Shown: in pieces, positions 28,785-29,050 of the stretch | Position numbering within the stretch: the stretch's first letter is position 1 | How the letters are laid out: every line of letters begins with the position of its first letter | Assembly (NCBI GenBank): GCA_963765675.1 | Contig: CAVXXK010000001.1 | Location: 1,984,001 to 2,048,000, forward strand | Direction of reading: 5' to 3' | Length of the DNA: 64,000 bases | Source: an uncultured delta proteobacterium | Lineage (GTDB): Bacteria > Desulfobacterota > Binatia > Binatales > Binataceae | Translations under genes and position numbers: made by a program | The notes under the pieces: generated by a model | Database searches by the model: none | What the model saw: the letters and a program-made list of their open reading frames with translations, nothing else | What the model was told of the DNA's origin: nothing

Positions 28785-28818
28785 GTTGTCCGGGGCAGAA
28801 TCGAGGAAAATTTTCTTA

Positions 28819-28847
28819 TTGACGGTCGCCCGGTACCGCCAGAAAAT
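28819..28847 (+). promoter_or_regulatory. Candidate sigma70-type promoter of the SEC-C microprotein
   Basis: TTGACG-17 bp-GAAAAT with an AT-rich tract just upstream. Confidence 0.5.
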
Positions 28848-28877
28848 GGGGTATCAAACGGATGGAGGTGATGTTTT

Positions 28878-28952
28878 ATGCCACAGCCCAATGACAAATG
28901 TCCGTGCGGTTCCGGCAAGGCTTACAAGGATTGTTGCGGCAAGGCCAAATAG
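28878..28952 (+). CDS. Stand-alone SEC-C (SecA metal-binding domain) microprotein, 24 aa
   Basis: [33 protein letters not shown] 7 nt upstream; below the ORF-track cutoff. Confidence 0.85.
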   Translation: [24 protein letters not shown]

Positions 28953-29008
28953 GATAGTCGTCAACGCCGGCTTGCAGAATCGCGCAAGTTCTCACGAAGT
29001 TCCTAACT

Positions 29009-29050
29009 GAAGGCGGGCCCGGATTCTCCGGCCCCGCCTTCTCGCGTTTT
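29009..29050 (+). terminator. Probable intrinsic terminator / stable hairpin
   Basis: GAAGGCGGG-C-CCGGA TTC TCCGG-C-CCCGCCTTC stem followed by TCGCGTTTT. Confidence 0.55.

Follow-up and report, generated by a model that had tools for sequence, protein, structure and literature searches.

The window, the 64,000-nucleotide stretch of DNA analyzed here, contains a small gene whose entire product is a SecA-type metal-binding domain. The open reading frame occupies positions 28878..28952 of the forward strand (stop included), from an ATG at 28878 to a TAG at 28950–28952, and reading the window sequence gives a product of 24 amino acids with the ligand pattern C8-x-C10-x8-C19-C20. The explanation that we favor, and consider probable, is a monocistronic gene for a free-standing Cys4 SEC-C knuckle, a metal/thiolate module whose expression is conditional in some clades. 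In the mechanism that we propose, a genuine monocistronic gene, restricted to Binataceae-type soil and peat bacteria, would encode the free SecA-type domain. Residues C8, C10, C19, and C20 would most likely hold one Zn2+ or Fe2+ in a knuckle fold like those of the SecA and YchJ peptides. Each clade would have a promoter of its own, sigma70-like in the clade of the window and sigma54-like or ECF-like in sister clades, and the peptide would function as a small metal/thiolate module of distinct specificity.

The Pfam SEC-C profile (PF02810) matches the microprotein with 35.6 bits (E 8.5e-9), the gathering score being 20.4 bits, and residues 5–22 align to profile positions 2–19 of 19. The preliminary description of this frame as a SEC-C domain and nothing else is thereby upheld. 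In a six-frame search of the window's genome, the same profile gives the microprotein 33.5 bits. The motif usually forms the tail of a larger protein, as that description also stated and as the NCBIfam models, a census of the phylum, and a plasmid search agree. Although SEC-C is typically such a terminal module, here a TGA lies upstream and a stop follows residue 24. The TGA, in frame at 28869–28871, is three codons 5′ of the ATG, and the stop-to-stop frame, which begins CFMPQ, has space for two further codons only. Because of this TGA, an upstream body is absent, again as first described. The mature peptide probably has 23 residues, with the methionine removed before Pro2 by the MetAP rule.

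Beyond its four ligands (C8, C10, C19, and C20), the microprotein has the characteristic turn, G11-S12-G13, and an aromatic residue, Y16. Across its family, the C-x-C-x8-C-[CH] ligands, the G-S-G turn, and the aromatic residue are invariant or nearly so. Against NCBIfam it gives subthreshold matches only, to models of the YchJ, YecA, and PBPRA1643 types at their terminal SEC-C stretches, together with a weak match (E 0.25) to a methionyl-aminopeptidase model that has a SEC-C motif at its N-terminus. The window's genome contains just two SEC-C motifs, the microprotein ORF and the C-terminal metal-binding domain (MBD) tail of SecA, and the two are 64% identical. The best matches in the PDB are isolated SecA MBD chains of 22–27 residues (1tm6, 1sx0/1sx1, and 1ozb) and a 32-residue chain of the YchJ C-terminus (9l6b), the latter at E 1.5e-5. 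A synthetic 27-residue SecA MBD peptide is reported, in the accessible text of a preprint, to bind Zn and Fe (bioRxiv 10.1101/613315). Since SecA peptides of 22–27 residues fold and bind metal, 24 residues are enough for a metal-folded unit, and from the sequence we judge metal binding through the four cysteines to be highly probable.

The SecA of the window's genome presents an irregularity. Its gene is split over two frames (L014, contig C14 of G000, ≈1498–3055): the C-terminal frame of 402 amino acids ends in the MBD, and the preceding part (...HEREAEIVAQAGR...) shifts frame near position 2700 of L014. This split is a frameshift or an assembly error.

Comparison with known systems places the microprotein closest to modules that are normally attached to something else. 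With the SecA C-terminal MBD it shares xNDxCPCGSGKxYKxC[CH]Gx and the length of the folding unit. Unlike that domain, however, it is unattached, has Cys instead of His as the fourth ligand, carries K7, A15, and D18 in place of P, K, and K, Q, or R, and belongs to a lineage without detectable SecB. YchJ (UPF0225; 9l6b, 9vxg) shares the CxC-x8-CC variant, but its ≈150 residues include an NTF2-like core flanked by two motifs and a cluster of lysines that serves DNA binding; the microprotein lacks the core and has fewer lysines. In YecA/AscA, UPF0149, the PBPRA1643 SWIM/SEC-C family, and other MBD-tailed proteins, SEC-C is a terminal module on a functional body, whereas in the microprotein the module is the whole protein. 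Proteins of 45–115 amino acids from the same phylum (L055–L061) likewise have one SEC-C motif, but they are extended at the N- or C-terminus, keep the canonical basic KKYK, and belong to different families, none of them motif-only. Tiny Cys4 or Cys3His knuckles encoded by independent genes are also known among haloarchaeal zinc-finger micro-proteins and Zn-ribbon ribosomal proteins such as bL36, which differ in motif (CPxCG pairs, zinc ribbons) and have no SEC-C signature. Four of the small proteins from the phylum, L055–L058 (in G055, G154, G077, and G179), form a separate family of ≈45–60 amino acids, in which a short helix-like N-terminal segment and a basic tail flank a central LGRND[PLVI]...[KHR]CH.

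The microprotein gene recurs in close relatives of the source genome. A blastn comparison of positions 28700–29200 with 40 relatives gave matches in 8 of 10 same-genus genomes and in none of the 30 others. An ORF with identical start and stop is present in five of the ten (G002, G003, G005, G009, and G010); nearly all differences among these five copies are synonymous, and replacements occur only at residue 23 (A/S/P) and as A15L in one copy. The G010 genome is flagged as unpublished, and the later results do not rely on it. Species-representative genomes were scanned with the full-motif pattern KCPCGSGKx[YF]KDCCGK, which returned 34 loci: 22 ORFs of 24–26 amino acids and 12 long frames that are the tails of large proteins in Clostridia-type records. 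The 22 mini loci share the form MP[QNK]P[NT]DKCPCGSGK[AVL]YKDCCGK..K, and every one has its ATG six codons ahead of KCPCG, with in-frame sequence farther upstream that is unrelated between loci. They are labeled Candidatus Binataceae bacterium or 'uncultured delta proteobacterium', with four exceptions (two Terriglobales or Acidobacteriaceae, one Thermodesulfobacteriota, and one 'proteobacterium').

To guard against circularity, we chose a pattern from the N-terminal half, MPxPxDKCPCG, that leaves the second half of the ORF unconstrained. Among the 301 genomes of the window's class, 9 match this pattern and none match its reversed control. The matches are confined to the window's family (8 of 49 genomes plus the window's own, against 0 of 252 in 19 other families); eight of the nine have the complete 24-residue ORF, and the ninth (L063) is disrupted after GSGK. 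Metagenome contigs yielded 80 loci, 74 of them intact ORFs of 23–26 amino acids; the other six are long proteins that start with SEC-C (L086, L106, L135, and L145) or disrupted copies (L117 and L136). No viral contig matches the N-terminal pattern. When all pattern scans are pooled, 102 of 109 loci are intact ORFs of 23–26 amino acids, from 78 loci unique in DNA, and the intact copies come from Binataceae-type genomes and from soil or peat metagenomes. The gene is patchy, occurring in 9 of 50 sampled family genomes and 5 of 10 same-genus genomes, and is therefore dispensable.

Three of the 109 loci, L063 (in G245), L117, and L136, carry frameshift-like changes that break the ORF past the GSG(K) codons, a pattern that may reflect occasional decay or sequencing errors. 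L086, L106, and L135, read from position 1501, encode proteins of more than 100 amino acids whose N-terminus is almost that of the microprotein, and L145 is another such case; such proteins may be where an N-terminal SEC-C tag originated, or may use one in parallel.

Searches farther afield returned the motif in other settings. A tblastn search of plasmids (801 records) gave, among the 40 matches listed, annotated ones that are all SEC-C tails of larger proteins (YecA, UPF0149, SecA, and sulfatase maturases). Two unannotated plasmid matches that we inspected are a 194-residue YchJ-like frame from Azospirillum and a SecA tail from Paenibacillus, neither of which is stand-alone. In the PF02810 census of the phylum (150 of 323 matches listed), none of the ten short frames examined is motif-only; they are start-less remnants or other small proteins of 45–115 amino acids.

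The preliminary description had suggested that the peptide could be a decoy that tunes contacts of SecA with SecB and the ribosome. SecB (PF02556) has no match in the window's genome (95.6% complete) or in any of the 61 family genomes, with control genomes positive, and a SecB decoy is therefore untenable in this lineage. The knuckle itself is also altered. Four positions are fixed differently in the family: K7 replaces P, D18 replaces K/Q/R, position 15 holds a small or hydrophobic residue where the canonical motif has K, and Cys20 stands where SecA has His. Among 46 unique coding sequences, position 15 is A, V, L, or M in 44 and position 18 is D in 45, where SecA and YchJ carry KKYK[QRK]. 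As judged from the residues exchanged, these substitutions strip part of the basic face. In SecA, the basic face contacts SecB. In YchJ, it is reported, in the accessible part of the source, to contact DNA (PMC13377102). Because the basic patch is altered relative to SecA, the microprotein probably has its own partner or role.

The ribosome half of the decoy idea is the main rival to a metal/thiolate module. A free MBD acting in trans would dock on the ribosome near the exit site, or on SecA, and compete with the SecA tail, so that co-translational targeting is retuned. The MBDs of SecA and YecA/AscA are both reported to bind ribosomes in the accessible text of one preprint (bioRxiv 10.1101/2020.07.21.215244), which reports SecB binding for the YecA/AscA domain as well, and a second preprint, as far as its text is accessible, reports ribosome binding for the SecA domain (bioRxiv 10.1101/613315). 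The window's genome retains a SecA with an MBD tail, one of its only two SEC-C motifs, and the weak match to a methionyl aminopeptidase with an N-terminal motif hints at use of the knuckle as a ribosome tag. Against the decoy stand the exclusion of its SecB half for this lineage and the family-wide replacement of the canonical basic residues at positions 15 and 18, and we regard it as unlikely. A more specific form, in which the MBD is a stress-induced competitor for the ribosome docking site of SecA-type MBDs in a SecB-less lineage, strikes us as decidedly unlikely. If true, such a ribosome competitor would shift SecA access and N-terminal processing when the sigma54-/ECF-type or other promoters fire, and it would be the first microprotein regulator of the Sec pathway made from the pathway's own targeting knuckle.

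For the metal/thiolate module that we favor, YchJ offers a parallel: its C-terminal C138-x-C140...C149-C150 motif is reported, in the portion of the source accessible to us, to be a reversible ROS switch (PMC13377102). We tentatively suggest that the microprotein may be a small redox- or metal-responsive metal/thiolate module rather than a SecB decoy. Buffering of Zn or Fe had been offered as another role, although a peptide with one metal site would be a poor buffer unless its expression were very high.

The window locus carries recognizable signals for the expression of such a gene. A candidate sigma70-like promoter, TTGACG-17 nt-GAAAAT, lies at 28819..28847 on the forward strand, with TTGACG at 28819–28824 and GAAAAT at 28842–28847; it has 9 of 12 consensus matches and is the sole such site in 28600–29300, where shuffles give 0.2. 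An AT-rich tract, aaaattttctta (28807..28818, forward strand), abuts the −35 hexamer on its 5′ side and may serve as an UP element, and the block AATTTTC-TTATTGAC is kept in the same-genus loci L002–L005. The Shine-Dalgarno sequence GGAGGTG occupies 28864..28870 on the same strand, 7 nt from the ATG, with 9 nt between GGAGG and the ATG. The candidate promoter with its upstream tract and the Shine-Dalgarno sequence are thus present as the preliminary description had them, whereas the terminator that it proposed stands in part. A GC-rich hairpin at 29009..29041 (forward strand; 14 pairs, −26.1 kcal/mol, 33 nt) is a candidate intrinsic terminator, and it persists in relatives with compensatory changes in the stem. 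The accompanying T tract, however, is a short TTTT at 29047..29050, and because this run is so short and begins 5 nt beyond the stem, a simple terminator scan calls no site in this region of the window. Rfam gave no matches to 28600–29300 at E up to 1, and inspection by eye of the promoter region in the window showed no operator of Zur or Fur type. Among sequencing runs, no RNA run with the window locus was listed, and of the 13 DNA rows the best holds 0.36 of the words.

Upstream of the 78 loci unique in DNA, we found three classes of promoter motif, all on the coding strand only. The sigma54-like class (GGCA[CT]G-N4-[AT]TGC) comprises 14 loci, with the motif ending 50–92 nt from the ATG. The ECF-like class (GAAC[TC][TC]-N13-15-CGTC) comprises 12, all with the 26-residue tail, at 55–83 nt. 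The sigma70-like class (TTGAC-N16-19-[GT]AnAnT) comprises 9, the window included, at 27–32 nt. In the two controls, namely the upstream stretch read as its reverse complement and the 200 nt downstream, matches number 0 and 0 for the first class, 0 and 0 for the second, and 0 and 1 for the third. The motifs were set by eye on a subset of loci, so the fair test is provided by the metagenome loci added later, which account for 10 of the 14 sigma54-like and 6 of the 12 ECF-like matches. The remaining 43 of the 78 loci match none of the three expressions, with near-misses at L131, L080/L081, and L016/L079/L084. These classes depict one tiny gene rewired to different promoters in sister clades. Whether expression is conditional and linked to stress or metal is, in our estimate, evenly balanced.

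The region upstream of the microprotein copy in L080 contains a near-sigma54 motif, GGCATGGTTAGTGC, and a response regulator with a sigma54-interaction domain is encoded ≈550 nt downstream of that copy (2119–3030, forward strand), a possible dedicated activator. In a clade of seven loci (L019, L111, L119, L121, L138, L141, and L147), the ORF starts ≈80 nt past an upstream frame on the same strand. This frame is CsbD-like in L019, and the other six loci share that upstream sequence; co-transcription of the microprotein with csbD is possible in this clade.

The signals that flank the ORF are conserved well beyond the window. A GGAGG-like core precedes the ATG by 5–10 nt in nearly all of 23 aligned loci, with weaker versions in L019 (AAGAAGG) and L031 (GAAGG). 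A hairpin of −15 kcal/mol or stronger follows the stop within 120 nt in 70 of 77 loci (median −22.7), against 5 of 71 for a control stretch at −260 to −140 (median −7.7), and in 41 of the loci with a hairpin of that strength, four or more of the following 10 nt are T. The hairpin sequence varies between clades; in one clade (18 sequences), compensatory changes occur in four of the 10 pairs of the consensus stem.

The neighboring genes, too, vary between clades. The window's ORF lies between a Glycoamylase-family gene (27468–28784) and a TauD-family gene (29147–30001) on the same strand as the ORF, with DUF1275, a 2939-residue GH94 protein, HpaB, and an MFS transporter farther out. TauD is downstream in only five related loci (L016, L028, L037, L044, and L148, the last with upstream and hairpin sequences identical to those of L028). 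Other clades have DUF2252, histidine kinases, a sigma54 activator, and others downstream, and among the family loci scanned the flanking Pfam families differ from clade to clade. This variation argues that the ORF is neither a leader peptide nor a gene remnant. Judged by its Shine-Dalgarno sequence, its hairpin, and its variable neighbors, the microprotein gene is probably an autonomous unit.

Genes of stress-related types occur near the microprotein gene in ≈10 contexts (CsbD, YflT, Coat_F/DUF892, Ferritin, DJ-1/PfpI, AhpC, PNPOx-like, DUF2383, DUF4142, DUF1269, and Holin-X), a tally that has no base rate for those families and in which many loci are orthologs and not independent. Coat_F/DUF892 pairs with DUF2252 and AhpC with DUF4142, and many unrelated enzymes are found as well. 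Stress-type neighbors are absent from the clade of the window itself, where Glycoamylase, DUF1275, and TauD are found instead. The apparent link to stress is one of guilt by association.

The arrangement in the window could also be read as a Cys-rich leader peptide, in which the Cys codons sense cysteine or sulfur and govern read-through of the hairpin into the TauD-family gene. Four Cys fall within 24 codons, the hairpin lies between the ORF and the same-strand TauD-family gene, TauD enzymes scavenge sulfur, and TauD lies downstream in the five related loci as well. A leader of this kind would not, however, be expected to show a full SEC-C domain score or selection on all motif residues, beyond Cys; other clades have different downstream genes, folding revealed no anti-terminator pairing that overlaps the ORF, and Rfam gave no match. 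We consider a leader peptide highly improbable. A secreted or modified peptide, whether a RiPP-like precursor or an extracellular small thiol peptide, would fit a product that is short, Cys-rich, and lineage-restricted, but all 24 residues are motif and leave no room for a signal peptide, the neighbors include no recurrent gene for a modifying enzyme or transporter, and the sequence is that of a canonical cytoplasmic metal knuckle, so this reading seems extremely improbable.

Purifying selection acts on every motif residue of the microprotein. Over codons 12–22, the part left free by the N-terminal search pattern, pN/pS is 0.062 (pS 0.845 and pN 0.053 for 46 unique coding sequences), in a set filtered for an intact CxC-x8-CC and 23–26 amino acids (7 of 109 removed) whose sequences are related and whose pS is near saturation. 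Ser12, Gly13, and Gly21 are each encoded by four codons and Tyr16, Asp18, Cys19, and Cys20 each by both of theirs. Selection extends over the whole motif, with G, S, K, Y, and D kept through several synonymous codons. The preliminary description had called the gene self-contained and not a truncation remnant and had named conservation of the stand-alone form, Shine-Dalgarno sequence, and terminator, together with dN/dS, as its checks; the conserved start and stop, the intact form in 102 of 109 loci, the nearly universal Shine-Dalgarno sequence, the hairpin in 70 of 77, the low pN/pS, and the variable neighbors all support it. The reading of the ORF as a chance frame, or as the nonfunctional leftover of either end (3′ or 5′) of some larger SEC-C protein, has precedents in the start-less SEC-C frames of the phylum (L052 and L053) and the longer metagenome proteins with a similar N-terminus (L086, L106, and L135), but it merits next to no credence against the conservation of start, stop, and length, the replacement rate at near-saturated synonymous change, and the conserved Shine-Dalgarno sequence and terminator; a chance ORF is excluded by this conservation. 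The two start-less cases, L052 (in G078) and L053 (in G136), are SEC-C motifs of 45 bits in frames of 20 and 38 amino acids without ATG, GTG, or TTG, and they look like remnants or frameshifted tails. An overlapping gene, either a 74-residue frame at 28786–29010 or one in the antisense frames, was considered and rejected, as every alternative frame over the ORF is open in 31 of 75 loci at most.

One 24-residue member of the family is present in RefSeq as WP_442886451.1, 'SEC-C metal-binding domain-containing protein [Candidatus Binatus sp.]', and two more variants, both unnamed, come from NCBI. By exact-sequence look-up, 10 of 13 family variants are absent from a collection of 15 billion proteins. 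No description of a stand-alone SEC-C protein was found in the literature searched, the accessible text of the two MBD preprints included. The domain itself is already known; as far as that literature goes, what had not been described is a gene for the motif alone, its confinement to a restricted lineage, and the diversity of its promoters. The SEC-C/MBD knuckle is widespread, in SecA, YecA, YchJ, and many other proteins, and a lineage without SecB in which nature has isolated it as a complete, selected gene product provides a natural test case. Whatever the peptide binds, be it metal, the ribosome, SecA, or oxidants, reads out the intrinsic function of the module, and the peptide is small enough to synthesize. 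It also illustrates cleanly how a bacterial microprotein can be conserved and yet be too short for most gene callers.

The surroundings of the ORF include two further features. The 2939-residue ORF of the window (17403–26225, reverse strand) has GH94 supersandwich and catalytic domains and a Glycoamylase domain, and this architecture resembles that of a giant of the cyclic beta-1,2-glucan synthase or phosphorylase type; its Glycoamylase domain is distinct from the separate Glycoamylase-family gene nearby at 27468–28784. In L016, L028, and L148, the family found upstream of the microprotein gene is DUF1275, and the scanned flank shows no Glycoamylase, whereas in the window (26539–28784) and in L037/L044 the Glycoamylase gene sits between DUF1275 and the microprotein gene, a difference that suggests insertion or deletion of the Glycoamylase gene within the genus.
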